A stretch of DNA of 63,853 nt, counting the filler, from Licmophora abbreviata (Eukaryota), in assembly GCA_900291995.1 (NCBI GenBank). It is 14 parts of 14 records of this genome, joined end to end, with 100 filler letters (N's around TTAATTAATTAA, not from the genome) between each part and the next. Parts side by side here need not be neighbours in the genome. Positions count along the whole stretch, not along the records: positions 7,607 to 9,227 come from OLMU01001113.1; positions 9,328 to 13,571 come from OLMU01001114.1; positions 13,672 to 15,870 come from OLMU01001115.1; 11 more parts are not named here. One strand, 5' to 3'. Shown here piece after piece: positions 2,515-30,344 of this stretch. The notes under the pieces were generated by a model. That model saw only the letters and a list, made by a program, of their open reading frames with translations, was not told where the DNA came from and did no database searches. The position numbers and the translations under genes are program-made. How positions within the stretch are numbered: position 1 is the stretch's first letter; each line of letters starts with the position of its first letter.

Positions 2515-3843
2515 ATGATACGCAACAGCAAAACCCCCAACGCACCGCAGGATGCCGTCTATGCCATTCGCGGGCGGGTGATCGCCGGCCTGGTGATGGC
2601 AACCCTTCTGGTCGCTGCGATCTTTGGCTGGGCGGCGAATGCCAACCTTGCCAGCGCGGTGGTCGTCAGCGGCGAAGTGTCGGTCAACCGCGATCTGCGG
2701 GTCGTCCAGCACCGCGACGGCGGCATCGTCAAAGAGATTCCCGCCAATGTTGGTGACTATGTGCGCGAGGGTGACATCCTGCTCCGGCTTGATGACACAT
2801 CTGCCCGCACCGAACGCGCGATCCTGCACGGCAAAATCGCCGAGCTGGCCATTCGCAAAAGCCGTCTCGAAGCGCAGCGCGACCTGATGGCGGAATTCCA
2901 TATGCCCGCCGGTCTTGATGAATTGATCGTGACGCCCGCGGCACTGCAGGCCATCTATGTCGGCGAGCGCCGCATTTTCCAGGGCAACATCTCGTCCTTC
3001 GTCAGCCGCAAGGAACAGATCGACCTCGGAATCGAACAGGTCCGCACCGAAATCGATGGCCTCGAAGCCCGCCTTGACGCCAAGCAGGACGAAATCCTGC
3101 TGGTGCAGGCCGAAAGCGCCCGCGTCGAAGACCTCTCCGAGCGTCGCCTGACCGTGCGCAATGTCGCCTTCTCGATCGAGCGCGAGAATGTCCGCCTGCG
3201 CGGCGAACGCGGCGAGATCCTATCGGCACTGGGCCGCGCCCGCAGCCGCGTCAGCGAGCTGGAGTTGGAAATCCTCTCGATGCAGGAAACACTGCGCACC
3301 GATGCGCAGCGCGAACTGCGCGAGATCGAAACCCAGCTGTCGGAACTCACCGAAAAGCGTTTCGTCATCGAAGACACCCTGTCGCGCACCGAAATCCGCG
3401 CGCCGATCTCGGGTCTCATCAATGATCTGAACGTCAATTCGGTGGGCGGCGTCATCAGCCCTGCCGAAATTCTGGCGACCATCGTCCCCGAAGAGGCTGA
3501 ACTGGTCTTCACGGCCCGTGTCCCGGCGGTGCAGATCGAACAGGTTAACGCCGGATATGCCGCCCGGATGCGCTTTGTCGCCTTCGACCAGAACGAAACC
3601 CCCGAAATCGAAGGCACCGTGTCCTACGTGGCCGCCGCCGCGACAAGCGATCCCAAGATGCCGGGCGACTTCTACTCGATCAAGGTCGATGTGACGCCCG
3701 ATCAGCTGGCCCGCCTCGGCGGCAAGGAGCTGCGCCCCGGCATGCCGGTCGAAGTCTATGTCACCACGGCCGAACGCACCGCCCTGTCCTATCTCGTCAA
3801 GCCCTTCAGCGATCAGTTCGCGCGGGCCTTCAAGGAAAGGTAA
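2515..3843 (+). CDS. prtE: HlyD-family type I secretion membrane fusion protein (PrtE/AprE)
   Basis: N-terminal TM, 'VVQHRDGGIVKEI', long coiled coil, 'IRAPISG', 'LRPGMPVEVYVTTAERTALSYLVKP'; RBS CAGGAG. Confidence 0.93.
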   Translation: MIRNSKTPNAPQDAVYAIRGRVIAGLVMATLLVAAIFGWAANANLASAVVVSGEVSVNRDLRVVQHRDGGIVKEIPANVGDYVREGDILLRLDDTSARTERAILHGKIAELAIRKSRLEAQRDLMAEFHMPAGLDELIVTPAALQAIYVGERRIFQGNISSFVSRKEQIDLGIEQVRTEIDGLEARLDAKQDEILLVQAESARVEDLSERRLTVRNVAFSIERENVRLRGERGEILSALGRARSRVSELELEILSMQETLRTDAQRELREIETQLSELTEKRFVIEDTLSRTEIRAPISGLINDLNVNSVGGVISPAEILATIVPEEAELVFTARVPAVQIEQVNAGYAARMRFVAFDQNETPEIEGTVSYVAAAATSDPKMPGDFYSIKVDVTPDQLARLGGKELRPGMPVEVYVTTAERTALSYLVKPFSDQFARAFKER

Positions 3844-4325: not shown

Positions 4326-6419
4326 ATGGGACGTGACAAACGCAAGGATCGCGATCGCGATACTGAAGACAAATACAAGGGCGAGTTCGAGATCAGGTTC
4401 ACCCAAGACGGGGAGACGCGCAGTCTCACCCTGAAAGGTAGTCCTGCCGACTACGACATTGACTTCGACGATGACGAGCTCGAGATCGAGGCCCGCAAGG
4501 GCGATGCCGAATGGGAATTCGAAGATATCGACAGCTTCGAAATCCTGTCCGCCGCCACGGATGAGGCCTCGTCAGCCCCCGACGGAACCTTCGCCCTCGC
4601 CGGTCCTCTGCGTGACTATGATTTCTTCCTTGAAGACGGGTCTCTGGTTGTCCGCAGCCGCATCGACGGCGAGGTCGAGACCCTTGAAAACGCCACCACG
4701 ATCACCGCTGGCGGCGAGACCTTCCAAACGGCCTTTCTCGTCGACATGCTCGAAACGCCCGGCCCGGATATCCTGGCCGAAGGCGGGCCGCGGCTGATGA
4801 CGGTCAACACACCCGACCCAACCCCAAGTGTGCTGTGGGACCAGATCCTGCAATCTGTCATCGTCGAAACTGGCGGCGGCCCAACCAATGCGGCGCGTGC
4901 CTTCTCGATCATGCACACCGCCATCTATGACGCACAGGCCAGTTATGACCCTGTCGCACAGCGCTTAGCGATCGACCTCGAAGGGGACAACCTCGATATC
5001 GCCAGCCTTGCCGATGCCTCCGGCGCCGAGATTGAAGCCGCCATGCATGTCGCGGCATATCAGACCCTCTCGCAACTCTTTCCCGGCCACCGCGACACGT
5101 TCGACAAGGTGCTGTCCGAACGCGTGGGGATCGACGTTTCGGATGATAGCCGCGCGCATGTGGTCGGCATTGATGCGGCACAGGACGTGCTGACCCCGCG
5201 TCTGGCCGAAGCGGCCGTGCTGGCCAATCTGTCCGACGGGCTTTACACACCGGTCAACCCCGGCCCCGACACACGAAACGACATCTCGCGCTGGACCCCT
5301 GAAAAGCAGGGCAAATTCTCGCCCACTCCAGACGCCCTGCAGACATTCCTGACCCCGGAACGCAGCCTTGCCGAAGGCTTCGCGCTACCCGAAACACCCC
5401 TTGGCTTGACCGACACCGCCCTGATCCGGCCCGATGGACCCGAGCCGTTCTTCACCGCCGATCAGCAGAACGCCGTCCTCGATTTCGACACCGGCACGAT
5501 CACCCTCGCCGCGCCGGTGAACGTCAACGGGCAGACGTGGCAGGCCGGCGATACGATCCCTGTGGACAAATCCCTGATCGGTCCGGTCATCAACCCGACC
5601 TTCATCTCTCAGGCCGAAGCCATCGTTCACACCAGCGCGACCCTGACCGAAGACCAGAAACTGATCGCTGAATTCTGGGAGGACGGCCCCGGCAGCAGCT
5701 ATCCGCCCGGTGCCTGGATGACGCTGGCGCAATATGTCTCTCAACGCGATGCTCATGACGCGGCCTCGGATGCCCTGCTGTTCATGACCATGGGCAACGC
5801 CATGAACGACGCGGCCATCGCGACATGGGACGCCAAGGTGCATTTCGACTATGCCCGCCCGGTCACCGTGATCCGCGACCTTGGCAAGCTCGGCCTGATC
5901 GGCGAACAGGGCGTCGACGAGCTGACCGGTGAGACCGGATATGTGATCCAGGCCTTCGGCGGCATCGACCCCGACACCGGCACCAGTCTCGGCACCCGCA
6001 CGATCCTTGCCGAAAACTTCATCACCTACCAGCTGCCCGGCGGGGAACAATCTCCGCCCTTCGCGGAATATACCTCGGGTCACAGCACGTTCTCGGGCGC
6101 CGGTTCTGCGGTGCTTGCCGCCTTCACCGGCTCCGATCACTTTGACGCGCAAGTCACGGTTGCCTCAGGCACCAGTGCCTTCGATGCCGCGCTGCCGACC
6201 CAGACATACCTCTTCGAATGGGACACGTTCTCGCAGGCCGCCAACGACGCTGGCTTCTCGCGGATCTATGGCGGGATTCACTTCAGCGACGGTAATCTCG
6301 ACGGGCTCGGCTCCGGTGCCAAGATCGGCTCGGATGCCTATGACCTTGCCTCCGAGTTCGCCAACGGCACAGCGCAGCCCGAACAGCAGCCCTTCTTCGA
6401 CGAATTTCTGTTCGGATGA
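4326..6419 (+). CDS. Vanadium-dependent haloperoxidase (PAP2 superfamily) with acidic N-terminal extension
   Basis: Three vanadate-site motifs: KVHFDYARP (Kx6RP), PPFAEYTSGHS, SRIYGGIHFSDG; also bacterial VHPO-type 'GPTNAARAFSIMHTAIYDA' and 'AEFWEDGPG'; no signal peptide. Confidence 0.88.
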   Translation: MGRDKRKDRDRDTEDKYKGEFEIRFTQDGETRSLTLKGSPADYDIDFDDDELEIEARKGDAEWEFEDIDSFEILSAATDEASSAPDGTFALAGPLRDYDFFLEDGSLVVRSRIDGEVETLENATTITAGGETFQTAFLVDMLETPGPDILAEGGPRLMTVNTPDPTPSVLWDQILQSVIVETGGGPTNAARAFSIMHTAIYDAQASYDPVAQRLAIDLEGDNLDIASLADASGAEIEAAMHVAAYQTLSQLFPGHRDTFDKVLSERVGIDVSDDSRAHVVGIDAAQDVLTPRLAEAAVLANLSDGLYTPVNPGPDTRNDISRWTPEKQGKFSPTPDALQTFLTPERSLAEGFALPETPLGLTDTALIRPDGPEPFFTADQQNAVLDFDTGTITLAAPVNVNGQTWQAGDTIPVDKSLIGPVINPTFISQAEAIVHTSATLTEDQKLIAEFWEDGPGSSYPPGAWMTLAQYVSQRDAHDAASDALLFMTMGNAMNDAAIATWDAKVHFDYARPVTVIRDLGKLGLIGEQGVDELTGETGYVIQAFGGIDPDTGTSLGTRTILAENFITYQLPGGEQSPPFAEYTSGHSTFSGAGSAVLAAFTGSDHFDAQVTVASGTSAFDAALPTQTYLFEWDTFSQAANDAGFSRIYGGIHFSDGNLDGLGSGAKIGSDAYDLASEFANGTAQPEQQPFFDEFLFG

Positions 6420-6442: not shown

Positions 6443-7327
6443 TCAGGCGAAAGCATTCTGGTCCGGTCGCCCGATCGGCATCCACAGCACTTGCGTGCGA
6501 TCCGCATCCAGGCGGTAATCGCACTGCGCGCGCGCGGCCATATGCTCCAGGATGTCGCGGGCCAGTCTCATCCGTTCGAACGGGCCGGTTGCGGCGCAGG
6601 TCGCATCCGCATCAGCGGTCTTTTCGCCCGCCTGAGCAACCGTCACCCATACCCCGGTCTGCCCGCGCCTGCCTTGCCCATGGCCAAACGTCACACGGGT
6701 TGTCTGTCCCTGGTCTGACATGCGGGCGATTTCCAGCATCGAGAACAACAATTGCATCAGCGTTTCGCTCTCCACTGCACTCAGCTCAACGGGCTGCCCG
6801 TCATGGCCGATATCAAGCCGTTGGCCGCAGGTTGTGAACATGAACCCAAAGCGCCGCCCTGCCTCTTCGGCACAGCCCGCAAGATCCGATGTCCCCGCCG
6901 CCGACAGCTTTGCGCCCGCCTCGAGCGTGCTGAAGGCCACCACGCGGTCCACTCGCAATTGCATCCAGTGCAACGCATCCTGTCGCATCCCATCCAGACT
7001 TTCATGCAGCAGCGGATCATCCCGCGACGCCATGGCAATACCCTGCAAGGCATTCAGCGGATTCCTCAGATCGTCGCTCACCATGTCCAGAAATCGCAGT
7101 TTGATTGCGTTCGACCGTTGCAGCGGCCGGATCAGCAGCCAATAGAACACAGGCGCCATGATGCAGAACAGCAGCACTGCATCCAGTATCGCCTCGCCCC
7201 ATATTGTCTCTGTCAGCCAGGGCATCCGCTGCTCGAGCCTGGCCAAGGCCAGCATGATGCCCAATTCCGCGCCCGCCAGAGTGATCAGGACAATCACGAC
7301 CTTCCCAAGCGAGTCATCGCGAAACAT
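6443..7327 (-). CDS. Membrane-bound histidine-kinase-like protein lacking the phospho-His (pseudokinase)
   Basis: Two TM helices, then 'KLRFLDMVSDDLRNPLNAL' (H-box SH[DE]LRxPL with His as Asp); downstream HATPase-like region lacks recognisable N and G boxes. The ORF could extend to 7360. Confidence 0.7.
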   Translation of the reverse strand: MFRDDSLGKVVIVLITLAGAELGIMLALARLEQRMPWLTETIWGEAILDAVLLFCIMAPVFYWLLIRPLQRSNAIKLRFLDMVSDDLRNPLNALQGIAMASRDDPLLHESLDGMRQDALHWMQLRVDRVVAFSTLEAGAKLSAAGTSDLAGCAEEAGRRFGFMFTTCGQRLDIGHDGQPVELSAVESETLMQLLFSMLEIARMSDQGQTTRVTFGHGQGRRGQTGVWVTVAQAGEKTADADATCAATGPFERMRLARDILEHMAARAQCDYRLDADRTQVLWMPIGRPDQNAFA

Positions 7328-7731
7328 GGTCAGACCCTGCCGACCGGGCAAACCATGCAAGCGGCGCGCGCCATGTGCGCTGTCCGCTCGACGCAGGCAT
7401 CAGCCAGGATCGGCGGCATTGCGAAGGCACATCTGTCATGCATGGGTATCAAGGCCCCTGTGCGATGGTGTCGTCAGCACATCTGTTTCGTTCAGACAGC
7501 CACCATNNNNNNNNNNNNNNNNNNNNNNNNNNNNNNNNNNNNNNNNNNNNTTAATTAATTAANNNNNNNNNNNNNNNNNNNNNNNNNNNNNNNNNNNNNN
7601 NNNNNNCAAGGCCCCTGTGCGATGGTGTCGTCAGCACATCTGTTTCGTTCAGACAGCCACCATGCTGCGAATCGAACACACCGGACTTCGGGGATATCAC
7701 AAAGCGCCCCAACCGCCGCTACCCCGGACTA

Positions 7732-7838
7732 GGACCAAAGTCCAAACTCTTGCTCGACCAAGGGTCTCGGCGGTGTCTTTAGGTCGAACGCCCGGGTCTT
7801 GCGAGACCATTGTCGCAGATCACGTCGGACCATTATCC
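7732..7838. promoter_or_regulatory. Cluster of GAC-N4-GTC-type operator boxes in the divergent pseudokinase/regulator intergenic region
   Basis: GGACCAAAGTCC 7732-7743, CGACCAAGGGTC 7755-7766, AGACCATTGTCG 7804-7815, GGACCATTATCC 7827-7838. Confidence 0.55.
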
Positions 7839-8139: not shown

Positions 8140-8772
8140 ATGTATAGAACGATGGTGATTTGCGATCACGCCTCTACGCGTGCCGGTTTCGAACATTTGA
8201 TATCTTCCTGCGAGTCCTTTGACTTGCAATGTGCGACTGCCTTCACACCCGAAATTCTCGACACATGCGCCCGCGACAAGGTCGACGTGGTGATTGTGGA
8301 TCTCGGATCGTTGGATCAGCCGATGAAAACCCTGCGCGCGTTCCGCAAATCAAGCGAGACCATGCGCATCTTGGCTTACTGCTCGGAAAAAGGCATCGAC
8401 ACAGCGGTCGAAGCCTTGGATGCGGGGGCATCCGGCATCCTGACCTACACAAGCGAACTAACCGATCTGTGCATGGCAGTGCGTCGCGTCATGAATGGCG
8501 ATAACTACGTGCAGCCCGATATGGCGATGGATATCTTCGCCAAGCTGCGTCAGGCCGAAGCCAAGCGCAAAGAGGCCGAGCGCCTGCGCCTGACCGCCCG
8601 CGAAAGCCAGGTGGTCCGCCATCTGATGCAGGGCATGACCAACGGTCAGATCTCGGTCGAGCTCAACATCAGCGAGAAAACCGTCAAGCACTATGTCGGC
8701 TCTCTCAAGGACAAGTTCGGTGCAGCCAACCGCCTCGAGGTGGTTCTGGAAGCGCAGCGTCTCGGGGTCTGA
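8140..8772 (+). CDS. NarL/LuxR-family response regulator with atypical receiver domain
   Basis: C-terminal LuxR HTH 'LTARESQVVRHLMQGMTNGQISVELNISEKTVKHY'; receiver fold keeps 'VVIVDL' Asp but has VICDH, LAYC and GASGILTY at the acidic-pair, Thr/Ser and Lys positions. Confidence 0.9.
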   Translation: MYRTMVICDHASTRAGFEHLISSCESFDLQCATAFTPEILDTCARDKVDVVIVDLGSLDQPMKTLRAFRKSSETMRILAYCSEKGIDTAVEALDAGASGILTYTSELTDLCMAVRRVMNGDNYVQPDMAMDIFAKLRQAEAKRKEAERLRLTARESQVVRHLMQGMTNGQISVELNISEKTVKHYVGSLKDKFGAANRLEVVLEAQRLGV

Positions 8773-9015: not shown

Positions 9016-9062
9016 GGACCTTGCCTTGGACCTTGGTATGAGTTTCGCTTGGACCTTCTCAT
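9016..9062. promoter_or_regulatory. GGACCTT repeats / operator boxes upstream of hemA
   Basis: GGACCTT at 9016, 9028 and 9051; full box GGACCTTGGTAT 9028-9039. Confidence 0.5.
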
Positions 9063-9137
9063 CTGTGGTCCGGCCCGCATCGCCGTTAGCGTCCCTGCAC
9101 AACAATCGATCAGTACGCATCTTGCAGGAAGGCCGGC

Positions 9138-10520
9138 ATGACACAGACCCAGACACCCCCCCGCTCGGAATGCTCCGGTTGCCTCGGCTGCCAGCGTGGC
9201 CGCGATCTCTATCTCGATGCGGCCCTTNNNNNNNNNNNNNNNNNNNNNNNNNNNNNNNNNNNNNNNNNNNNTTAATTAATTAANNNNNNNNNNNNNNNNN
9301 NNNNNNNNNNNNNNNNNNNNNNNNNNNGATCGTCTGCATCAGGAAGGCCGCTATCGGACCTTCATCGACATCGAACGCCGCAATGGCCAGTTTCCGCATG
9401 CCACATGGCGCCGCCCTGATGGCACCGAGCAGCCGATCACCGTCTGGTGCGGCAACGACTATCTGGGCATGGGCCAGCACCCCGAGGTCCTGGCGGCGAT
9501 GCACGAGGCGCTGGATGCCACCGGCGCGGGCTCGGGCGGCACGCGCAACATTTCCGGCACCACGGTCTATCACAAGCGGCTCGAGGCAGAGCTGGCCGAT
9601 CTGCACGGCAAGGAAGCGGCGCTGCTGTTCACCTCGGCCTACATCGCGAATGACGCGACATTGAGCACGCTGCCCAAATTGTTCCCCGGCCTGATCATCT
9701 ATTCGGATGCGCTCAACCATGCCTCGATGATCGAGGGGGTGCGCCGCAATGGCGGGGCCAAGCGCATTTTCCGCCATAACGACATGGCGCATCTGCGCGA
9801 GCTGCTCGAGGCCGACGATCCCGCCGCGCCCAAGCTCATCGCCTTCGAATCGGTCTACTCGATGGATGGCGATTTCGGACCGATCGAGGCGATCTGCGAC
9901 CTGGCCGACGAGTTTGGCGCGCTGACCTATATCGACGAGGTGCACGCGGTGGGCATGTATGGCCCGCGCGGCGCTGGCGTGGCCGAGCGCGACCGCCTGA
10001 TGCACCGCATCGACATCATCAACGGCACGCTCGCCAAGGCCTATGGCGTGATGGGCGGCTATATCGCGGCGAGCGCGAAAATGTGTGACGCCGTGCGCAG
10101 TTACGCGCCGGGCTTCATCTTCACCACCTCGCTGCCGCCCGCGGTGGCCGCAGGGGCCGCGGCCAGTGTTGCGCATCTCAAGCGCGACGGGTCGCTGCGC
10201 GAGGCGCATCAGACGCAGGCGAAGATCCTCAAGACCCGGCTCAAGGGCATGGGCCTGCCGCTGATCGACCACGGCAGCCATATCGTGCCGGTGATCGTGG
10301 GCGATCCGGTGCATACCAAGAAGCTGAGCGACATGCTGCTCGAGGGCTATGGCATCTATGTCCAGCCGATCAACTTCCCGACCGTTCCACGCGTGGCACC
10401 GAGCGCCTGCGCTTCACCCCCTCGCCGGTTCACGGACCGCGCGAAATGGATGCACTCGTGCACGCCATGGACGCCCTCTGGAGCCATTGCGCGCTCAACC
10501 GGATCGACCTCGCCGGCTGA
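9138..10520 (+). CDS. hemA: 5-aminolevulinate synthase; spans an apparently zero-length gap; 2-nt frameshift near 10390
   Basis: ATG 9138 after CAGGAAGG gives [30 protein letters not shown], which joins [17 protein letters not shown] at 9328. Motifs: [50 protein letters not shown] (PLP Lys). The canonical C-terminus ([13 protein letters not shown]...[14 protein letters not shown]) is in a shifted frame ending at TGA 10520. Confidence 0.92.
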
Positions 10521-10551
10521 CAGCCGCCACAACAAGAAAGGAGCCTGACCG

Positions 10552-11777
10552 ATGCGCTGGATCACGCGAGGCGCTGTTGTCGCCACCGTCGCCATTCTGT
10601 GTCCCTTGGGAATTTCACAGCTGACCGCGACGGAAATGGCCGATCCCATCGAAGACCGCGTCCCTGTCGCGGCCTCGGTGCGGCGCGCGGATTCGCTGCG
10701 CATCGACGACGTGCTGCATGCCTTCGGGCATGTCGCGCCTGCGGATATCATCCGCGTGTCGATGCCGCGCCATGCGGCCCCGGTGACGGAAATCCTCGTG
10801 AACGAAGGCGATATGGTCGACGCCGGACAGATCCTCGTCCGCATCGACCGCACCGATATCCAACGCGATCTTCTGCAGGCTCAGGCCACGCTTTCGGCCA
10901 CCCGCGCCGATATCCGCATCGCCCGGTCCAGCCTGCAGGTCGCCGCCACCGATATCGCGCAGCGCCGCGCCGAACTCGACCGGCTCGAACGTCTTGCCAA
11001 AACCGGCGCCTCCTCCGAGGTGCAGCGGCAGGACGCCACCCGCGCGCTGCAACAGGCGATGTCCGAACACGAGGCCGCCAAGGCCCGTCTCGCCGGTGCG
11101 CAGGCCAGCGAGGCCCTCGCCCTGCTCGCATTGGACCGCGTCACCACGTTGAACAGCCAACTGGATGTCCGCGCGCCGGTCGCAGGCCGCGTGACCCGGA
11201 TCATGGTCGATCCCGGTGCAACGCCTGTCATCGGCAGCCCGGTCCTCGATCTCGCCGCCGCCGACCGCATGGAAGCGGTGCTCACCGTGCCCCCCCAGCG
11301 CTTGCCCGCGTGTCCCCGGGCACTCCGGCGCGGCTCTGGACGCCCGATGGCGCGATGATCGCCGCCGATGTCACCCGGATCAGCCCCTCGACTGGCCCCG
11401 ATACCGGTCTCGCGCGGGTCGCGGTGCGCTTGCCCGACGGGCACGCCCATCTTGCAGGCTCCAGCCTGCGCGCCGAAATCATCGTCGATCAGCGGGTTGC
11501 GATCGTCGTGCCCACATCCGCCCTCGTGGCGCTCGATAGTGGCCCCGGCCTCTTTCGCGTCGTCGATCAGCGCGCCGTCGCAACCCCGGTTGACCTGTCG
11601 ATGCGCCCCGGCGGCGCCGAAGCCGAGATCGTCGCGGGCCTGTCCGAAGGCGCGGTCTATGTCGCCGTCGCCTCGCCCCTCCTGCGGGATGGCGAACGCG
11701 TGGCGCGTCGCAGCGGTCCGACCGACACCGGCCTCAAGCAGACAGCGGCGTTGCATCTCGGGCTGGCCCGGCGATGA
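10552..11777 (+). CDS. RND efflux periplasmic adaptor (MFP); frameshift near 11290-11310
   Basis: Lipoyl/hairpin pattern 'VTEILVNEGDMVDAGQILVRID...VRAPVAGRV'; continues in another frame with 'IVVPTSALV...EIVAGLSEG...LRDGERV' to TGA overlapping the next ATG. Confidence 0.8.
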
Positions 11778-14700
11778 CCCTCACGGAACGCATCCTGCGC
11801 CACGCGTTCCTGCCGGTGATCGTCATCGTCGTGCTGGCGCTTCTGGGCCTGCGCGCGGGGCTGACCCTACCGCTGACCCATTTGCCCGATATCGGTGACA
11901 ACCGGATCGTGCTGCGCCTGTCGGCGCCCGATGCCTCGCTTGCTGCCACCGACCACGATCTGGCCCAGCCTGTCTACCGCGCCTTGTCATCCCTGCCGGA
12001 CGTCACTTCGATCCGGTCACAAATCACCTCTGGCCAGCTGGTCATGACCCTCAGCCTGCGCAATTCCCGCACCGCCGAGGACAGTCTCGCAAAGGTGCAG
12101 GACCGGCTTCAGGCGCTCAAACCCGATCTGGATCTCGCGATCTCCATCGACGAGATCCGCGCCACCTCCTCGCGGCGTCAGGCGGCGCTGGAGCTGGCCA
12201 TTCTGCCCCGCGACGGCGATATCGTCGCCGCCAGCGATGCGACGCGCGACGTCATCCTGCCCGCCTTGCGCCAGATCGACACCATCGCCGAGATCGACAC
12301 CCAAGGCGCCACCCGCGCCGAACTGGTGATCCGGACATCCGACCCTCGGCTGGCCTCCGTCGGGCTGACCTTTGCGGCGTTGAACCGCCAGATCACGCAG
12401 GCGCTCTCGCAACAGGTGGCCGCAGCCGTGCCGGTATCCTCCGCTCCGGAGGCAGGGACCATTCTGCTTTCACTCCCGCAGGACATGCTGGCCGCAGAGG
12501 CGGCGCAGACACTCTCCACCCTGTCGCTGACCACCGCCTCGGGCCAGAAGATCCCGCTGGCGGCTGTGGCGCGTGTGTCGACTGCGCCTGCCCCGAGTGA
12601 GTGGCTGACCCGGCACAATGGAACCCCCGCGATCCTCGCACAGATCCATGCCGCGACCGGCGCCGACCTCGTGACGCTCAGCCGGGATCTGGACCGTGTT
12701 CTGAGCGATCTCCGGCACAGCCGCCCCGATCTCACGCTCGACGTTGTCGCGCGCCCGGCCAAGCAGGCGATCCGTTCGCTCGGCGCCACCCGGCAGGCCC
12801 TTCTGGAAGGCTGCCTGCTGGTCATCGCGGTGATCGCGCTTGCGCTGAAATCCTGGCGCGCCACGGCCCTGGCCGCGTTGGCGATTCCGCTCTCTGTTCT
12901 GCCCACGCTCTATGTGATGCAGGTGCTTGGCCTCAGCCTGAACATCGTCAGCTTGCTGGCCTTGACCCTAGCGTCGGGAATCGTCGTGGACGATGCGATC
13001 GTCGAGATCGAAAATATTCACACCCATCAGCGCCGCAGCCGCGACCCCCGCAAGGCCGTGGCGCGCGCGGTCGATGAAATGGCCCGCCCGGTCATCGCCA
13101 CAAGCCTTGCCCTTCTGGCGGTGTTCCTGCCCGTTGCGACCATGCCCGGCGAGGCCGGTCTCTATTTTCAGGCTTTCGGCTATACGCTGTGCATCGCGAC
13201 GGTGTTTTCCCTGCTGGTCTCGCGGCTTGTGATCCCGGGCCTTGCCCTGCGCTTCGCGGGCAGCCCCGTGGCCCTTCCCGCGGCACCTTCGGCCCGGCGA
13301 CTGGCCCGGCGCTACCGTGCGGTGGTCATCCGCGCGCTGCGCTTTCGGTGGCTCTGTCTGGCAGGGGCCGGGCTTGTGGCGGGGCTCTCGGTGGTCGCGG
13401 CGCTCAATCATCCCGGCGCGTTCATCCCTCTGGATCGCGATCCGCTCCTGCAGTTCGACATGGCGCTGCCGCCGACGATGCCCCCCGAGGCGCGTCTGGA
13501 CCATCTGGCAGCACTTGAACGCGATCTTTTGGCCGATGAGGGCGTGCGCGGCCTGACGGTGATCGCCTCCGNNNNNNNNNNNNNNNNNNNNNNNNNNNNN
13601 NNNNNNNNNNNNNNNTTAATTAATTAANNNNNNNNNNNNNNNNNNNNNNNNNNNNNNNNNNNNNNNNNNNNGTCTTCTGTTGCGCACCGACGGCGCGACC
13701 CGAACCGAGGCGCGGTTGCATGATGCGCTCAACCAGACCGCCGATGCGCGCCTGCTCCCACTCACCAGCACCGGGCGTGCGGCACTCGTGCTCGATCTGG
13801 CGGCCCCTGACCTCCACAGTCTTGAAATCGCAGCACCCGCGATCCTTGCCGCCATCGCGCAACTGCCCGGGGATATCCCGATCCTCTCCCCCATGTCCGC
13901 AAGACAGGCGCAGGTGCGTTTCCTGCCCGACCAAGGCCTCCTGCGGCAGCTCGACCTCAGCACGGCGGATCTTGTCGCGTCCCTTCAAGGACATACAAAC
14001 CCCGACAATCACCTGATTGCCATGATCGAAAGCGATGACCGACAGCCGCTCCGCCTGCGCAGTCGGCTGACACCCTCCGGTCTGGACGGCAATGCGCCAG
14101 GTGACCTGACCTTCGCACCCGTGCCCTTGCCCGGTGGCGGCACCGTGCCGCTCGCAGCACTTGGCCGCTTCGATCTGGACTTCGCGCCTCTGCGGCTCGA
14201 ACGGCGTGATGGTCTCTATGTCCTGCCGCTTCTGGCCGCGCCGGACACGGCCGCAACGGCGCGCCGTGTCTCCGATGTCGCCAAGTCTGAGGTGGCCCGG
14301 CTGTCCGCTGATCTGCCCGGTCTTGCCCTTCTGCCCGCCGGCGACACCACCTCGCGGCTCGAGATGATGTCCGACCTTGGCCGCGCCTTGGGCAGCATGC
14401 TCTTGCTGCTTGTCGCGGTGCTCTACGCGCTCTTCCGTTCGGTGGCGCAGGTCGGGGTGATTCTCGTCTCGCTGGTCTTTGCGTTGAGTGGCGGGATGCT
14501 GGTCCTGTCGCTCACCGGCCTGCCGGTGTCCCTGCCGGTGCTGATCGGTCTGATCCTGCTGCTCGGCATCGTCGCCAAGAACGCGATTCTTCTGATCGAC
14601 CGTGCGCAAACCCTGGTCGCGCGGCATGGCAATATGGCGCAGGCGGTGATCGCTGCCGCCTCGGACCGTGCGCGCCCGATCATCATGACCAGCGTTGCGA

Positions 14701-14912
14701 TGATTGCCGGGATGCTGCCTGCGGCCCTTCCGTGGCTTGAGGGCTCGGCCTTCCGTCAACCGCTGGCGCTGACCGTGATCGGTGGCGTCGCGGTCTCGAC
14801 CCTGCTCAGCCTCGTGGTCACGCCGGTCCTGTGCCTGATGGCCCATACTGCGGCATCCCGCATCGCCCGCCGCATCGCGCCGCGCGCTGCCACACCCGTT
14901 CCCCAGACCTGA
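11774..14912 (+). CDS. RND efflux permease (AcrB/AcrD/AcrF family), split by gap 13572-13671
   Basis: 'AIPLSVLPT', 'LNIVSLLALTLASGIVVDDAIVEIENI', 'GIVAKNAILLID', 'RARPIIMTS', 'PLALTVIGG'; proton-relay DD, K and T retained. Confidence 0.88.
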
Positions 14913-14996: not shown

Positions 14997-15053
14997 GGAC
15001 CTTGGTCTGATACGAGCGCTACCTTCGTAGGGTTTTTCACAAGACCTTCAGCG
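14997..15053. promoter_or_regulatory. Operator boxes upstream of the giant peroxidase gene
   Basis: GGACCTTGGTCT 14997-15008, CTACCTTCGTAG 15019-15030, half-site AGACCTTC at 15042. Confidence 0.5.
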
Positions 15054-15150: not shown

Positions 15151-18100
15151 ATGGTTTTCGTCAACACAAACGACCTGAAGCACATCCTCGACCAGATCCG
15201 CATCGCTGAACAGCATGTGGCCGGTACACCCTTGACCGATCTGGTGGCGAATCCCCTGCTGCCCTACGGCCTGCGTCTGGTCGATGGCACGTTGAACAAC
15301 CTGACCGAAGGCCGCGAGGACTGGGGCTCGGCGGATCAGGTCATGCCGCGCCTGCTCCAGTCAACCTTCCTCACCCAACCCGAGTCGGCGCATCTGGCAG
15401 ATGCCAGCCCGCGCGCCCCGCAAGACGGACCCACGTCCTATCTTCAGACCTCCGGGTCGGTCTATGATGCCGAGCCTCGGGTGATTTCGAACCTGATTGC
15501 CGATCAGACCCTCGCCAACCCCGCCGTCATCGCCGCAGCGCTCAGCCATTCCGGTCTGACCGGTCAGGCGATGCTTTCGGCTGCCAACGAAATCGTTCAG
15601 GCTTATCAGCGCGTCATCGATGCGCAGGCCGCCACCGGCAATGTCGATCAGGCGCTTGAACTGCAGCGCCAGCAACTGCAGTCCGCTCTGGACACCGCCA
15701 GCGCCGAACTGACCGCCGCACAGAACGATGTCTCCGCCAAGACAACGGCCAAGGCTGACGCCGATCTGGCCGTGACCGACGCCAAGGCCGCTTTGGATAC
15801 GGCCGCCGCGACAATGGTTGCCCTGCAAAGCGCCGGTCAGGTGGGCGAGGCTCAGGCCGCGCTGACAGCCNNNNNNNNNNNNNNNNNNNNNNNNNNNNNN
15901 NNNNNNNNNNNNNNTTAATTAATTAANNNNNNNNNNNNNNNNNNNNNNNNNNNNNNNNNNNNNNNNNNNNAACGCCCTCGATGCCGCGCAGGCCGAGCTG
16001 GACGCCGCCAACGCATCCGCCGCCTCGATGCTGACCATGCACGGCGCCAAGCAGACCGAAGTCACCAACCTGCAAAGCCAGAAGGCGACCGCCGATCAGG
16101 CGCTTGCCTCGGCTCAGTCCACCCTGTCCGACGCTGAGGCGGCACTGGCACTGGAAACCGACGCCGCAGGCGCGGTGACTGAGGCTCAAACGGCGGTTGA
16201 TAACGCCACCACCGCAGTCAGCGAAGCGCAAGCGCGTGTGGACGACCTCGACGCACAGCTCGAGCAGGCGCAGACTGACCTCGACGATCTGACCACCCAG
16301 CTTCAGACCGCGCAGCAGGCCGAGACCGCCGCACAAGCCCGCGTCAACGCCGCTCAGGAAGCCGCCGCTGAAACCCAGATCGCCCGCGACAACGCCCAGT
16401 CCCTCTTCGACACCGAAGTGACCGAGCTTGCCACCGCGCAGGCCGATATGCTCAGCGCCCTCTCGACCTATCTCAATGGCGGATCGCTGGCCGACTTCTC
16501 CGTCGCGTCCGCGGCCTATTCCAAGGCCCGCGAGGAAAAGCTGGCCGCAGAAATGGCTCTCGCTGACGCGATCGACGCGGATGATGGCGCCGATCAGACG
16601 GTTCTGACCGAAAATGCCGCCCTCTCCACGGCGAAGTCTCAGGTCACTAGCCTGACTCAGCAGCGTGATACTGCGATCACCACGCGTGATGGGCTGAACA
16701 CCCAGCTGGGCGAAGCCAACACCGCCCTGTCCACGGCGCAAGCCACCCTCGAAACCGCCCAGCAGGATCTTCAGACCGCACAGGCGGACAATCAGGCTTA
16801 CGTCGATGCGCAGAACGCCGTCACGCAGGCGCAGGACGGCGTCAACACGGCACAAGGCGTGGTCGATGGTTTTGTGACCCAGCTCGCCACCGTCAACGCC
16901 GAGCTTGCAACGCTGAACACCAATGTTGAAAACGCCGATGCCGAAGTCACCCGCCTCGAAGGCGTCGTTCAGACCGAAACCGGCGATCTGACCATCGCGC
17001 AAGATGGCGTCGACTCGGCCCAGCAAACACTGGCAGCAGCCCAGACGGCCGATGCGCAGATCCTCGCGCAGCTCGATGTGATCGCCGATGCAACCCTCAC
17101 GCTCAACCAGGCGACTGAAACTGCCGCTCAGGCAGCCCTCGATCTGACCGCGGCAGAAGGTGTTGAAGCTGCCAAGCAGACCGCGGTCGACACCGCCACA
17201 AGCGACCTCGACGCCCTGACCGCACCCGGCGCGGCCGAAGCCGCTCTGGCCGCCGCTCAGGCCACCGCTGCCGAGGCGCAAACCGCCCTCGACACGCTGC
17301 TGACCACCCATGACATCACCATGGACGGCAACAACGTGCTGCTGCCGGATGTGTCTCCTGATGAAGGCCTGACCGCGCCCTACAACTCCTGGATGACCCT
17401 CTTCGGTCAGTTCTTCGATCACGGCCTCGATCTGGTCGGCAAAGGGGGCAGCGGCACCGTCTACATCCCGCTGCAGCCCGATGACCCGCTCTATGTCGAA
17501 GGCTCGCCCACCAACTTCATGGTGCTGACCCGCGCCACCAACCAGCCCGGACCGGATGGCATTCTGGGCACGGACGATGACGTGCGCGAGCATTTCAACA
17601 AGACGACACCTTGGGTCGACCAGAACCAGACCTACACCTCGCACCCCTCGCATCAGGTGTTCCTGCGCGAATACGATCTCGACGCCAACGGAAACCCGGT
17701 CTCCAACGGCTACCTGCTGCATGGCCAGACCGGCGGCATGTCCACATGGGGCGACGTCAAGGCGCAGGCCGCGACCAAGCTGGGCATTCAGCTCAATGAT
17801 AGCGACGTGCTCGATGGCCCGCTGCTGGCCACCGATCCCTACGGCAACTTCATCCCCGGCCCCAACGGCCTGCCGCAGCTGGTCGTGCCGAACCCCGCCT
17901 ATGTCGAAGGCGGCACCGAGCCTTTGAATATCCTGATCGAAGGCGATCTGGCCAACCCCGTCGATGCAAGCCAGGCGCTTCGTAACGGTCACGCCTTCCT
18001 CGAAGACATTGCCCATAACGCGTTCCCCAAGGGCATGATCGACCACGATCGCAACCCGATGACACCCGAAATCGAGGTCGCGCCCGATGCCGATACCGAC

Positions 18101-21100
18101 ACCGGCAACGCGATCATCCCCAACCAGTTCGGCCAAAACGAAACCTACGACAACGAGTTGCTGGACCGTCACTTCATCGCCGGCGATGGCCGTGGCAATG
18201 AAAACTTCGGCCTGACGGCGGTGCACCACGTGTTCCACACCGAACACAACCGCCAGACAACCGAGATGAAACAGACTATCCTCGACAGTGGCGAGCTGGC
18301 GTTCATCAACGAATGGCTGGCCACCCCGATCACCGAGGCCGATCTGGCAACCGCGACTGTGAACACCGTCGAATGGGATGGCGGGCGTCTGTTCCAGGCC
18401 GCCAAGTTCACCACCGAGATGCAGTATCAGCACCTCGCCTTCGAAGAGTTCGGCCGCACCGTGCAGCCCCAGATCGCGGCGTTCATGGCAAATGCCAGTG
18501 CCGAGATCGACGGATCGATCATGGCGGAATTCGCCCATGTGGTGTACCGCTTCGGTCACTCGATGCTGACCGAGAACGTTCACACGATGGACCCCAACGG
18601 CGTGAACACCTCGAACGGTCTGATCGAAGCCTTCCTGAACCCGGTCGCCTTCGACCTTGACCAGACCCTGACCTCGGATCAGGCGGCAGGTGCCGTGGCC
18701 CGTGGCATGTCCCGCGAAACCGGCGCCAATATCGACGAGTTCATCACCAGCGCCCTGCGCGACAACCTCGTTGGCCTGCCTCTGGACCTTGCCGCGCTGA
18801 ACATCGCGCGGGGTCGGGAAACCGGTGTGCCCTCGCTCAACACCGCCCGCGAGCAGTTCTACTCCGCCACCGGCAGCGAGTTCCTCAAGCCCTATGAAGG
18901 CTGGTCGGAATTTGCCGCGAACCTCAAGAACCCGGCTTCCATCATCAACTTCATCGCGTCCTACGGCACCCACGAGACCATCGTGAACGCCACGACCGTG
19001 GTGGAAAAGCGCGCTGCGGCCACAGATCTGGTTCTCGGCGGTGACACTGCCCCGGCGGACCGTCTGGACTTCGTCAACGGCACCGGCGCCTGGGCTGCGG
19101 TCGAAACGGGGATCAACGCTGTCGAGTTCTGGATCGGCGGTCTGGCCGAGGCGATCATGCCCTTCGGCGGGATGCTCGGCTCCAGTTTCGGCTTCGTGTT
19201 CCAGCAGCAGATGGAGGCGCTGCAGAACGGCGACCGCTTCTACTACCTGGCCCGGACAGCCGGCATGAACATGCTGGCCGAGCTGGAGAACAACTCCTTC
19301 GCCTCCATGATCGTGCGCAACACCGACATCCAGGAAGGCGGCGCGCATATCCCGGCCAACATCTTCTCGTCGATGGATGTCATCCTCGAAGTGGATCAGG
19401 CCGTGCAATCCATGCCCGACCCGGTGTCCACCGATGTCGATCCGTTCCTTGCCGCCATGGGCACCACCATGGTCGAAAGGGCCACGGCCACGGTCGATGC
19501 GCCTCTCACCGATGGCGCGCGGGACTATGACAACTTCCTCAAGTTCAATGGCGGCGAGCATGCCTTGCTCGGTGGTACGGACCAGCGCGATATCCTCATT
19601 GGCGGCCTCGGCGACGATGCGCTCTGGGGCGGCGCGGGTGACGACCTTCTGATCGGTGGCGCTGGCGTGAACACGTTCCGTGGCGGTGCCGGCAACGACA
19701 TCATCAGGGATGGTGACGATATCAGCTTCCTGCATGGCGAAGACGGCGACGACGTGATCTCGGCTGGCGGCGGCATCGGTGAACTGATGTTCGGCGGCAA
19801 GGGCAATGACGCCATCCTCATGGGCTTCGACGACGCAGCCGAAGCGTTCGGCATGGACGGCAACGACTTCATCTACGGTGGCGCCGGTGCCGAGATCATG
19901 TTCGGCGGCGAAGGCGACGACTGGATCGAAGGCGGCGACGGCTTCGATATGCTCCTGGGCGACAACGGCGATCCCTTTGGCGGGTCGCGGGTTGTGGGCC
20001 ATGACGTGCTGAATGGCGGTGCCAACGACAACGACCTGCTTGGGGAAGGTGGCGATGACATCCTGATCCAGGGCGAGGGCGTGCATGTCAACGATGGTGA
20101 TCTCGGACATGACTGGGTGGCCCACAAGAATGCGATGACAGGGGCCGATATCGACCTCAGCCGTCGTCTGGAAACCAACGAAGCACTGGACGCGATCCGC
20201 GATCGCTACAACCTGATCGAGGCGGCATCGGGCACGCAGTTCGACGATTTCCTCTACGGCGATGACCGCGAAGGTGCGGCACTGCCGGCCGGGATCGACC
20301 TGCTGGCCAATGATGCGACGCTCTTCGCCAACGAACTGACGCAGGCGGGCGTTGACCGGATCGCAGGGCTGCGCGAGTTGCTGGGCGACATGATGGGCGT
20401 TGACCCCGCAGATACCTTCACCGGCGGCAACATCCTGCTCGGTGGCGGCGGCAGCGACGTGATCCAGGGCCGCGGCGGCGATGACGTGATCGACGGCGAC
20501 AAGGCGCTCAACGTGCGCATCTCGGTCCGCGATCCTCAGGATCCGACCGTGGAACTGCGCTCGATCAACAGCCTGTTCGAAATCTCGAACGAGCTGCTCG
20601 ACGGCTCCATCAGCCCGGGCCAGCTGCAGATCGTGCGGGAAATCCTCGACGCCGGTCAGGAAGGCGATGTGGACACCGCCGTCTACTTTGATGTGCGGGC
20701 CAACTACAACATCCGCCAGAACGCCGATGGCAGCGTCACGGTCGATCATATCTCACCGCCCATCGAAGGCGCGTTCATCGATCCGATCAACGGTCAGCCC
20801 AACGTCGCCGGTGGTGACGGAACTGACCGCTTGACCAATGTCGAAATCCTGCGCTTTGCGGATATGGAGGTTGATCTTCGCACCGATCCGGCCAGCAATG
20901 GCTTGATCCAGGGCACCGATGGCAACGATGTGCTCGACGGCAGCAACGGCCCCGACGCGATCTTCGCAGGCGCCGGTGACGATGTGATCAACGGTCTTGC
21001 CGGCAATGACGTGATCTTCGCCGAAGGTGGCTCCGACACGATCACATGGAACGCGCCCAACGGCGGCTACGATGTGGTCGTGGGTCACGGGATCGTCAAC

Positions 21101-24100
21101 GACGGTGGCACCGACATGCTGGTGATCAACGGCGACGGCACCGAGGAAGGCTTCACCATGTATACGGTCGCGGCATGGGCCGATGCAGGCGGTGCAGCCC
21201 CGGCGGATGCACTCTCCGAGATCATCATCACCCGGACAGTGGCCGGTGCGGAAACCGCGATCATGGAAGTGCGCGGCATCGAGGAGGTCGCAATCAACGG
21301 GGTGCAGGGTGTTGAAACCATCACGGCAGTGGGTGACTTCGCAGGCACCTCGCTGGCGCCCAACACGATCTACGTGAACGGCACGGCGGGTCGCGAAGTG
21401 ATCGACTTCTCCGGCTTCACCTCGACCCAGCGTCTTGTGGTGGATGCAGGCGACGGTCGTGACGTCATCACCGGCGGTGCAGGCAATGACATCCTGAACG
21501 CCGGTGCGGGCCGCGACGAAATCACCTGGAGTGTCGGCGGCGGCAGCGATGTGGTCGACGGCGGCGCAGACGAAGACACCTACATCATCAACGGCGATGC
21601 ATCTGATGAAACCTTCCGCGTCTATGCGGCGGACTCCTGGACAGGGGCACCCCTGGCCACCGGCACCGACATCGTCATCACCCGCGACGCGGGCACCGGC
21701 GAACAGGTGATCGGTCAGCTTCAGAACATCGAGGAAATCCAGATCAACACCGCAGGAGGCACGAACGACGTGCAAGTTATCGGTGACTTCAACCCGACAG
21801 CTCTCAACTTCAACACCATCAGTGTGACTGGCGAAGTTGCCAATGTGGATGTCACGGGCCGTCTTTCGACGCACCGCGTGTTCGTCGAAACCGAAAGCCG
21901 CGCCACCACGGTGACCGGCATCCTGACCGAAGGCGACGTGATCGTCGTCCCGGTGGATATCGACCCGGCCACTCTGGAAACGACCCGTTCGACTGACGGG
22001 CTGACCGTCACGCAGACCTCGGGCGACTTCACGCTGAGCTTCACGGTCGATGATGTGGACACGCTTCCGATCGTCGTGCAGTCCGGCAGCGGCCTGGCCA
22101 ACGCCCTGCGCGATGTGGCGACCATCAACGAGCAAACCGGCGCACCTCAGGGCATGGGAACGGTCGCTCTCGGCACCCTGCCGCGTGGCAATGTCCTGCT
22201 CACCGGCGATGATCTGGCCGCGTTGAAATACATGATCACCGGTCAGGGCGAAGCGCCTGTCCTTCCGCCCGAAGCGGGTGAGCCTGCGGACGACGAACCG
22301 GCTGATCTGATCGTCGGTGTCCGCGATCTCGAAGGTCTCACCAATAACCTGCAGAACCCCGAGATTTCGGGTGGCGCGACCCTGCCGTTTGCCCGTGTGA
22401 CCGACGCCCGCTACGGCGTCGACACCGACACCGGCAGCAGTGTCGGTATGGACGGCGCAGGTATCGTCAACCCGGTGTTCGCCGATCTCGACGCCCGCGA
22501 CATCTCGAACGCCCTCGGCGCTCAGGATGCGGATGCGGCCAAGGCGGCGACGGCCAACATGTTCATGATGTCCTTCGGTCAGTATTTCGACCACGGCCTG
22601 ACGTTCATCCCCAAAGGCGGCCATGCCCCGATCGCGATCGGCGACATGGGCGTGGACCGGATATTGGGCAACCCGGTTGACCTCAACCGTGCCACGGCCA
22701 CGGTCAATCCCGACACCGGCGAGATCGAGCATACCAACATCACCTCGCCCGTGGTCGATCAGAACCAGGTCTACGGCTCGTCCAACCTGGTGGGTCAGCT
22801 CCTGCGCGAAAGCGGTGAAAATGGCGGCTTCGGTGCCCATGTCCTGATGGGTCAGGAAGATCCCTCGGCCCCCGGCTTCAAGCTGATGGCCACACTGCGG
22901 GAACTGCTGGATCACCATACCAATGCCGGTACGGTCTTTACCGGAACCGACAAGGGCGATGTCACCCTCGAAGGGTACTACCCGGATCTGTTCAACGATG
23001 ACGGCACCTACAACGCCGCAACCATCAAGGAACTCTCCGGCGACTTCATGGGGGAAGGCTGGCCGCTCCTGATCGACACCAACCCGTTCATGAACCTGCT
23101 CGACCACTTCGTCGGCGGCGACGGGCGTGCGAACGAAAACGTGGGCCTCACCTCGATGCACACCGTCTGGGCGCGCAACCACAACTACCACGTGGATCAG
23201 CTTCTGGCGGCGGGCTACGCAGCCGACACCACCGAAGAGCTGTTCCAGGCCGCGCGTATCCTGAACATCGGGGAATATCAGCAGGTCGTGTTCAACGACT
23301 TCGCCGATAGCCTTCTGGGCGGGTTGCAAGGCTCGGGCCGTCACGGTCATGACAAGTATGACCCGACAACCGATGCCCGCATCAGCCACGAGTTCGCGGC
23401 GGCGGCCTATCGCTTCGGCCACTCGCAGATCGGTGAGACGATGACTCTCAAGACGCAGGACGCCGATGGCAACACCATCACCGTCGATGCGGACCTGTTC
23501 GATCTGTTCCTGAACCCGACCAACGATCCGAACGCGTTCACCGTGCCGCTTCCCCACGGGTATGTGCCGCAACCGGGCTATGCCCAGTACGGTGTCGCCA
23601 ACATCCTTGGTGGTCTGGTGGAACAGCCCTCCGAAGAGGTTGACCTGCAGGTGGTGGATGCCGTCCGCAACGACCTCGTGCGCAGCCCCGCCGATCTCTT
23701 CGCCTTCAACGTCGCTCGCGGCAGGGATCTGGGCCTCGGCACGCTCAATCAGGTCAAGGCCGATCTGGCGGCGTCCGGCAACCTCTACATCTCGGAAGCG
23801 ATCGAGCTGTCGGACATGGCCATGACACCCTACACCGACTGGGCCGATTTCCAGACGCGCAACGGGCTGTCGGACGACATGATCGCCAAGTTCGAGCAAG
23901 CCTACCCGGAGCTCATCCTGGAAGTCCCTTCGGACGAATACAACGCCTTCGTCGCGGCCAACCCCGATATCGCGATGATCGACAATGGCAATGGCACGAT
24001 GACCGTCAAAGGCATCGACCGTGTCGACCTCTGGGTCGGTGGCCTGGCCGAGCAGCACATTCAGGATGGTGTTGTCGGTCATACCTTCTGGGTGCTCATC

Positions 24101-28136: not shown

Positions 28137-28947
28137 CCCCGCCCTCGTCTCCGCCATGGGCGGCGAGAATGGGGGCCGGCCCTGCCACGGGTCGCAACAG
28201 GGTCAGCCTTGCGGGCCGCGCCACGACGCACCGCACCCCGCATGGCCACGCCGCGCAGCGGCGATCCAGGCGGTGCTGACGGCCGCAGTATGCGGGCCAA
28301 ANNNNNNNNNNNNNNNNNNNNNNNNNNNNNNNNNNNNNNNNNNNNTTAATTAATTAANNNNNNNNNNNNNNNNNNNNNNNNNNNNNNNNNNNNNNNNNNN
28401 NCGCCTCCGTCCTTGCCAAACCCCCTTGCCACTTGAAACGCTTGCCCACACGCGTCCGCCGGGCCACTACGCGACGCACCCCGCCTCGTCGGGCCGCGGT
28501 GCGGCGACCCACGGGTTGGTCATGGGCCCTTTATCCCCGCCAAATCCCAATATTCGATGAACGGCGCATCCAGCCTCGCCAAATCGCCGCGCCGGGGGGC
28601 GGCCCGGCGATGCGCGACGGCCTTCGGCCTTTACTCCGCGCTGGGGCCTCTCGACCCCCCTCTCCGCCCCGGCCCCCCGACCTCGTCACGTTTTGCTTGC
28701 CGGTGCGTTCGGCGGGCAGGGGGCACCCTGAGACCTCCCTGGCGTTCCTTATGTGGAGCGGGGTGCGGTGGTGGGATTGGGGGGATTGCAGTCCTTGGCT
28801 GCACCTTGCACGAATATCTGGTTTGGGCTGGTCGCGAAGCCCCCCATGCTCCAGAGGCGACCGTAACGCCGCACACCTCGAAAGATGCCAAATTTTCGGC
28901 ACATTTCTCCTGCAATAACCTTATATATCCATGGCTTGGAGATTTCG

Positions 28948-29933: not shown

Positions 29934-30344
29934 TCACCTGAGTTTGGGGATTCCGCCCGGCAGGGTCTCGCGTTCGACCACGCTCGCGCGCATCGAGCGG
30001 CCGATCCGGTGCGCCAGATGCGACCATGCGGCGGCCTTCTCGGGCGGCAATTCGGCCTTCAGGATCGTATCGAACAGGTCCAGCCAGGTCGAGAACATCC
30101 CCGGCTTGACGTTGCCTGCGCGCACATGCACGGCCACCGGATTGCCCCTGTAACTGCGCTCGTGCAGGATGGAATTTGCCCAGAAATCAACGACTTTCGC
30201 CTCATGCGCCGGCCAGTCGTCGACATGCGCGGCGAACACCGGCCCCAGTCCGGGATGCGTTCGGGCGGCCGCGTAGAACGCCCGCACGACCCGGTCGATC
30301 TCGGGCCGCGTGATCTCGAAGCGCGGAGGCAGGGCAGTGCTCAT
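29934..30344 (-). CDS. Group III truncated hemoglobin
   Basis: 'IDRVVRAFY', 'LGPVF...DWPAHEAKVVDFW', 'YRGNPVAVH', 'FSTWLDLF', 'AHRIGRS'. Confidence 0.88.
   Translation of the reverse strand: MSTALPPRFEITRPEIDRVVRAFYAAARTHPGLGPVFAAHVDDWPAHEAKVVDFWANSILHERSYRGNPVAVHVRAGNVKPGMFSTWLDLFDTILKAELPPEKAAAWSHLAHRIGRSMRASVVERETLPGGIPKLR

Follow-up and report, generated by a model that had tools for sequence, protein, structure and literature searches.

Introduction

Giant peroxidases with animal-heme domains and RTX repeats, encoded next to the genes of a type I secretion system (T1SS), have been described as PehA (PP2561) in Pseudomonas putida KT2440, MopA in Erythrobacter sp. SD-21 and AhpL in Roseobacter sp. 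AzwK-3b. Substrates of a T1SS cross the envelope unfolded, and 5-aminolevulinate synthase (ALAS), the product of hemA, catalyzes the committed step of heme synthesis. According to passages of two reports, homologous peroxidase domains stay inactive until they are reconstituted with added heme (PMC9518985; PMC6247904), and excerpts on AzwK-3b and its relatives implicate such enzymes in the formation of extracellular superoxide and the oxidation of Mn(II) (PMC6328764; PMC6247904). Here we analyze a stretch of 63,853 nucleotides (the window) from an assembly deposited for Licmophora abbreviata (GCA_900291995.1, hereafter G000), in which the gene of a peroxidase of this kind follows an operon of hemA, a periplasmic adaptor (membrane fusion protein, MFP) and a permease belonging to the RND (resistance-nodulation-division) superfamily. 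Our tentative interpretation is that the operon supplies heme as an accessory module within a T1SS heme-peroxidase island, where it would act as a co-regulated booster rather than an obligatory component.

Results

The operon lies on the plus strand. hemA starts with the ATG at 9138, preceded by AGGAAGG at 9126–9132, and ends with its true stop codon, TGA, at 10518–10520; the adaptor gene (10552–11777) begins 31 nt later, its stop overlaps the start of the permease gene (11774–14912) in the ATGA at 11774–11777, and 238 nt separate the end of the permease gene from the peroxidase ATG at 15151. A preliminary description of this DNA had given the 31-nt spacing and the ATGA overlap and placed the peroxidase gene just downstream, which the coordinates bear out. 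The window scaffold contains 13 linkers of the form N-TTAATTAATTAA-N, and two of them (9228–9327 and 13572–13671) fall within the operon; no hemA codon is lost at the first, about ten permease codons at the second. As written, hemA furthermore carries two extra bases near 10393 and the adaptor gene is one base short near 11297. Both frameshifts are absent from the contigs of runs X1, X5 and X6, and the one in hemA also from run X7, where the adaptor site is not covered; they are therefore assembly errors, and the intact run contigs rule out that hemA and the adaptor gene are pseudogenes. Run X1 is possibly the source of the window DNA; X5, X6 and X7 are not flagged as such.

The linkers in this region, together with the nature of G000 (a mixed assembly of 29 Mb in 7,734 contigs with two distinct ispG loci, whose genome-wide counts are not those of a single organism), could suggest that scaffolding or chance brought these genes together. 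However, the gene order across both linkers is found contiguously in the relatives L009, which has an intact adaptor ortholog of 407 aa, and L186, and the contig graph of run X1 connects the hemA core to the adaptor gene. This leaves an artefact with virtually no probability, and we reject it and take the hemA-MFP-RND operon as genuine. In all 14 related loci that reach upstream (L007–L013, L108, L185–L189 and L191, several of them close kin; the 1-kb fragment L190 was excluded), hemA immediately precedes the adaptor gene, at RND identities of 45–95%. Directly downstream of the permease gene, 11 of the 13 loci that reach that far carry the peroxidase. In G005, titled as an Aestuariivita metagenome-assembled genome (MAG), the peroxidase gene is found some 26 kb away, on the opposite strand, together with T1SS, luxR and haloperoxidase-like genes.

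The hemA product scores 610.8 bits against TIGR01821 (cut-off 338.55), which identifies it as ALAS, and contains the pyridoxal-phosphate (PLP) lysine motif GTLAKA in a frame left intact by all four runs. Its catalytic core (9328–10495) is represented in run X1 by a single contig of 1,166 nt at a depth of 36.6, compared to 17–19 in the flanks. The contig has two entry and two exit paths, and one exit is the end of the housekeeping hemA; hence the cores of the locus copy and of the housekeeping copy are identical there. In relatives the housekeeping gene sits between an M20 peptidase gene and rodZ-ispG, a place taken by an assembly gap in G000. The hemA cores collapse likewise in the assembly of R. 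litoreus. In G005, where both copies were assembled, they are 100% identical across the first 1,000 columns and each is only ~80% identical to the window copy, and short overlaps match completely within G004 (75/75) and G058 (55/55). Copies that are not homogenised also occur (G003, 79.8%; 3' ends in G406, 75%, and G002, 82%). In a tree of the hemA cores (16 rows, labelled by synteny, fragment L188 excluded, a quick tree having been inspected beforehand) the two G005 copies form a group with 100/100 support, and a single clade for the five locus copies is rejected by the approximately unbiased (AU) test (p=0.0002). The identity of copies within genomes and this rejection point to gene conversion that keeps the locus core equal to that of the housekeeping gene. 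A third hemA copy, only 57% identical, belongs to the photosynthesis cluster. The locus gene is not the only hemA of the genome.

Judging from its core identity with the housekeeping enzyme, the locus HemA would make 5-aminolevulinate (ALA) from glycine and succinyl-CoA. ALAS-like enzymes are known from secondary metabolism, as a part of PMC9356726 describes, and an ALAS beside an exporter matches such a layout; the locus gene might then encode a cyclising enzyme of the alaremycin type whose product is exported by the RND pump. A core base-identical to the housekeeping ALAS and an operon that holds no ligase or tailoring gene make this very improbable.

What sets the locus gene apart from its housekeeping counterpart is its two ends. 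An extension of ~20 aa with a CxxCxxC motif (leader, 9138–9227, cysteine codons at 9171, 9180 and 9189) replaces the housekeeping start, and the C-terminal tail with the stop codon (10496–10520) is specific to the locus. CxxCxxC is intact in six of seven sequences, and leader changes are concentrated at third codon positions (19/12/49 at first, second and third). With a motif that we take to resemble those of ferredoxins, the leader is probably redox-sensing or a binding site for heme, a metal or an Fe-S cluster. Among the four candidates (E ~7) returned by a search for further leader-bearing HemA proteins only ordinary HemA N-termini were seen, and an Atlas search with the leader gave just unnamed short hypothetical proteins at 0.89–0.90, which are uninformative, and no named relative. 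Upstream of the housekeeping hemA of G145, a frame (L171, ~1400–1500) reads SECTGC, a faint likeness to the leader that may be due to chance or be left over from an exchange between the gene copies. The locus HemA also keeps His and Cys at the positions matched by numbering to H340 and C398, described in a part of PMC6154995 as the heme-feedback ligands of Caulobacter ALAS.

An operator-like palindrome links hemA to the peroxidase gene. It stands in the window as GACCTTGGTA (9029–9038, placed 112 nt ahead of the last base of hemA's start codon), as GACCTTGGTC before the peroxidase gene (14998–15007) and as GACCAAAGTC between a HisKA-like gene and luxR (7733–7742); additional GACCTT half-sites lie near hemA at ~9017 and ~9052. 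The motif used, GACCWWGGTC with at most one mismatch, was derived from these same sites, and its weight therefore rests on the cross-genome and positional results. It precedes 18 of 18 peroxidase genes, mostly at -151 to -158, and 7 of 7 leader-bearing hemA genes at -110 to -113, as well as five of six luxR, both T1SS ABC genes and not the one haloperoxidase-like gene, while only one of eight housekeeping hemA genes is so preceded. As a background, matches number 21 in the 63.9-kb window; a stricter version leaves the three sites at 7733, 9029 and 14998. G005 retains the core palindrome at both hemA and the peroxidase gene despite their distance of ~26 kb and opposite strands. For an extended version, the entire R. 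litoreus assembly has exactly two matches, one at hemA and one at the peroxidase gene, and G004 has three, two being the same pair of sites; it misses G169 as well as the hemA and peroxidase sites of G005, which match the shorter core alone. The extended version is not enriched in G000, the mixed 29-Mb assembly (six matches against 11 for a control pattern), two of the six being the hemA and peroxidase sites. Five other extended matches were inspected, of which four had no visible link to the island and one precedes an unidentified long open reading frame (ORF). A sigma-70 scan gave no promoter and three terminator-like sites, which is chance level.

Given the palindrome at 14998, the peroxidase gene probably has its own promoter, so that a transcript shared with the operon would not be required. 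The candidate reader of the palindrome is the adjacent NarL/LuxR-family regulator (8140–8772, plus strand; PF00072 and PF00196), whose receiver is atypical: the usual Lys is missing from all six copies, as aligned by eye. The neighbouring HisKA-like membrane protein (6443–7360, minus strand; PF00512) has, compared to what we take to be the usual H-box motif, an Asp at the expected phospho-His site (SDDLRNPL) in three of three copies (window, L009 and L164). With the phospho-His apparently replaced and the receiver Lys missing, the pair looks phosphorylation-independent.

The permease (~1019 aa, interrupted by the linker at 13572–13671 and 95% identical to P0001) has the PF00873 domain, the two-repeat fold and the D-D-K-R-T proton relay of RND proteins; its adaptor scores 66 bits against TIGR01730 on its first piece, below the cut-off. 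In the tree, its 44 best homologs fall into a single clade (support 1.0), separate from 25 weaker matches sampled as every third of ranks 45–120 over 900 aa, and the proton relay is invariant in 44 of 44. The predicted fold is generically AcrB-like (TM ~0.8) at ~20–22% identity to solved pumps. Against the NCBIfam models of the named subfamilies AcrB, AcrD, MdtB/C and CusA/CzcA, the two halves reach at best 239 and 119 bits, with cut-offs of at least 700. The clade splits into a branch of 31 whose examined members are linked to hemA and a sister branch of 13; the members of the latter that were examined stand behind RTX-Hint genes (G148 and G415) and have neither hemA nor operator, and in G417 the contig ends. 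All 31 members of the hemA-linked branch share R44, R129, R785 and Y789, and 30, 29 and 27 of them R574, W277 and H281, respectively; each of these is replaced in the sister branch, whereas R111, R134, R327 and R607 are common to both.

The conserved arginines of the porter domain, and R607 in particular, which aligns with AcrD R625 (its codon is split by the linker in the window), suggest a carboxylate or other anion as cargo, which fits heme or porphyrins and is not specific to them. W277 correspondingly aligns with Y277; these access- and deep-pocket residues are placed by alignment only. As described in a part of PMC8699017, R625 of AcrD is required for dianionic beta-lactams. Since basic access-pocket residues of AcrD thus serve anions other than porphyrins, the pump might instead export a non-tetrapyrrole anion of RTX islands, be it halogenated or oxidised products of the two peroxidases or an envelope or matrix component, with hemA recruited for the common promoter. 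The sister clade directly after RTX-Hint genes and a vanadium haloperoxidase-like gene within the island would agree with this, yet G145 and G169 carry both this gene and the peroxidase and no such RND was found in them, the hemA-linked clade gained invariant porter residues of its own, and hemA is kept at every one of the 14 loci. We consider such a cargo unlikely. The TolC channel is present in five of five genomes tested.

In a family sample of 401 genomes the pump clade occurs in four, the peroxidase in 18 and both in three, which corresponds to the peroxidase in 3/4 pump carriers versus 15/397 non-carriers (Fisher p=3e-4); these and the following statistics ignore kinship, and many of the genomes are incomplete. 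Among 131 genomes of the genus Roseovarius the respective numbers are four, 14 and three (p=0.004), and in the fourth pump carrier a peroxidase start lies at the contig end. In the genus of G148 (26 genomes) they are three, 12 and three (p=0.08). Pump-less peroxidase carriers are nevertheless the majority in all three samples (15/18, 11/14 and 9/12), and since most carriers lack the pump, it cannot be an obligatory or general loading route of such peroxidases. This also bears on the possibility that the pump is an overflow valve, clearing surplus phototoxic porphyrins such as coproporphyrin and protoporphyrin IX (PPIX), or free heme, while the peroxidase obtains its heme by leakage, vesicles or lysis: most carriers manage without the pump, which is moreover tied more tightly to hemA (14/14) than to the peroxidase (11/13). 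The photosynthesis-cluster hemA in these genomes indicates exposure to light, an arginine-rich pocket would suit polycarboxylic porphyrins equally well, and MacAB-TolC expels PPIX under disturbed heme homeostasis, as reported in a part of PMC4263509. On the other hand, the three pump carriers in the genus of G148, sister-clade members without linked hemA and probably close kin, have the most peroxidase matches of the 26 genomes (8, 5 and 5 versus at most 3 elsewhere), and there the pump tracks peroxidase load and not hemA. We regard a pure overflow function as rather unlikely.

The peroxidase itself (15151–25408, plus strand, with a linker at 15871–15970; PF03098 and PF00353) has two sets of GQ.FDH / GD.R.NEN /.RFGHS heme motifs in An_peroxidase domains, RTX repeats and an adjacent T1SS, as do secreted peroxidases of the PehA/MopA/AhpL type, and is 54–60% identical to Pseudomonas and other proteins of the family. 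Its N-terminal region (15151–17350) contains a long Ala/Gln-rich, coiled-coil-like stretch, apparently missing in more distant, ~60% identical relatives, which begin to match again near residue 440 of the ORF at 16028. The T1SS consists of a PrtD-type ABC permease/ATPase (51–1823, plus strand; TIGR01842, 628.9 bits) and an HlyD-type membrane fusion protein (2515–3843, plus strand; TIGR01843, 311 bits), both above cut-off. The vanadium haloperoxidase-like gene (4326–6419, plus strand; PF22778 VCPO_2nd and PF21167) accompanies the heme peroxidase in G003, G005, G145, G169 and L186, so that such islands hold two classes of peroxide-using enzymes.

The islands of relatives vary. That of G145 (L164) runs peroxidase, T1SS, haloperoxidase-like gene, HisKA-like gene and luxR, after which a transposase-like frame, presumably IS110-like, occupies the place of hemA-MFP-RND (L164, 1–395). 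L186 (6706–6795 and 5119–5703) has lost two leader cysteines and the HisKA-like gene and retains the palindrome before hemA. In L294 (12056–19711), L295, L320 and L321 (G148 and G415), the sister-branch RND genes stand directly downstream of a gene for a giant RTX protein with a Hint domain at its end, and upstream of sarcosine-oxidase-like genes, an arrangement of RND and Hint proteins that we think recalls Hedgehog and Dispatched. In the window, ~55 nt are duplicated at 7452–7506 and 7608–7662 on either side of a linker, which reflects overlapping contig ends and no biological repeat. Further downstream, 28885–29625 and 29934–30509 (minus strand) hold an NYN-domain gene (PF01936) and a small gene that lacks a Pfam match and appears to us to resemble a group III truncated hemoglobin.

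Discussion

We propose that the peroxidase, the T1SS and hemA-MFP-RND would be co-induced through one operator-like palindrome, whose reader is probably the atypical LuxR regulator encoded next to it. The extra ALA synthase, its core apparently matched to the housekeeping enzyme by gene conversion and new in its promoter, its CxxCxxC leader and its last residues, would raise ALA and tetrapyrrole flux during mass production of a two-heme peroxidase of ~3,400 aa, and the leader may tune its activity via metal, Fe-S, heme or redox state. The proton-driven RND pump, together with the chromosomal TolC, would move a tetrapyrrole with carboxyl groups, heme being the likeliest, to the cell surface; there the apo-peroxidase would fold and take it up. 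The parts of this proposal are not equally firm. That the module raises tetrapyrrole flux upon induction of the peroxidase is likely, and that it exports a tetrapyrrole somewhat less so. As to the purpose of such export, we lean slightly towards the loading of heme and away from an overflow valve for porphyrins, and a cargo of some unrelated anion is conceivable. In the most specific version, an RND pump dedicated to heme export would draw on an ALA synthase that is gated by metal or redox state and continually re-copied from the host hemA, and would deliver heme via TolC to load the T1SS-secreted peroxidase outside the cell; this is conceivable but doubtful.

Several observations weigh against a heme-supply module, besides the derivation of the palindrome from the sites it is meant to explain and the many peroxidase carriers in which no pump was found. 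In five genomes with 82–93% identical peroxidases neither pump nor leader-bearing hemA was found. Conversely, the MAG G058 has hemA-MFP-RND and no peroxidase was found in it, and the sister RND genes beside RTX-Hint genes do without hemA and operator. The four arginines shared with the sister clade imply that the basic pocket predates hemA, and H281, the sole conserved porter His (27/31), lies outside the known pocket positions. The leader of L186 has lost two of its cysteines. Neither a later heme gene nor an outer-membrane factor was seen in the island, DNA 5' of the T1SS ABC gene being outside the data, and hemA is its sole duplicated gene. Among the genes that PMC9518985 lists for the pehA island of P. 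putida there is likewise no hemA or RND, unlike in the window.

The preliminary description had proposed a heme synthesis-and-export route and, to check it, had asked for a separate housekeeping hemA, a conserved position, an RND phylogeny and co-occurrence of the pump with peroxidase genes. The separate housekeeping hemA was found in relatives and through the X1 contig graph, the position of hemA and pump proved to be conserved, and the RND phylogeny yielded a distinct clade. Co-occurrence with the peroxidase held in one direction, from pump to peroxidase, and failed in the other. What stands of the proposed route is the extra hemA and its conserved position, heme export by the pump is plausible, and what falls is its role as a general loading route. 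The converted core, the CxxCxxC leader and the palindrome that hemA has in common with the peroxidase gene were absent from that description.

The locus thus supplies a candidate exporter, operator and regulator for extracellular heme loading in some marine bacteria of the Roseobacter group. If our interpretation is true, it would represent a pathway by which extracellular heme enzymes, for instance bacterial Mn oxidases, mature through heme synthesis and export. Separately, adding a CxxCxxC leader to a core kept by gene conversion would be a novel means of rewiring a housekeeping enzyme. Such an ALAS paralog is easily overlooked because its converted core collapses in assemblies. The open-access literature, to which our search was confined and which leaves subscription papers aside, yielded no paper on heme loading of these peroxidases, nor did it yield the hemA-MFP-RND-peroxidase combination, a CxxCxxC leader on a converted ALAS or the operator; for the terms searched, bioRxiv 10.1101/2022.11.10.515945 and PMC6328764 make no mention of the module. 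While the parts belong to known families, their combination, the leader and the operator therefore appear new within that literature.

Among the closest known systems, that of AzwK-3b comes from a strain with this RND in two copies on different contigs (P0002, P0123 and P0124), an intact one that is 92%/85% identical and a split one; a 92% identical pump in this model strain makes the question directly testable. With alphaproteobacterial HemA proteins, including those of Caulobacter and of photosynthesis clusters, the locus enzyme has the full ALAS core and the PLP lysine motif in common; unlike them, it is a third copy with an apparently converted core, an N-terminal CxxCxxC extension and a peroxidase-type operator. 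The permease shares fold, proton relay and the Arg at the AcrD R625 position with the HAE-type RND pumps MdtB, AcrD and AcrB, but it belongs to a separate clade of 44 members at low identity and has no outer-membrane factor in its operon. In function, its proposed tetrapyrrole efflux resembles that of MacAB-TolC for PPIX (PMC4263509) and HrtBA for heme (PMC9271180). Excerpts of these reports describe both as detoxifying ABC pumps, whereas the pump of the window is an RND protein in an operon with a synthesis enzyme.

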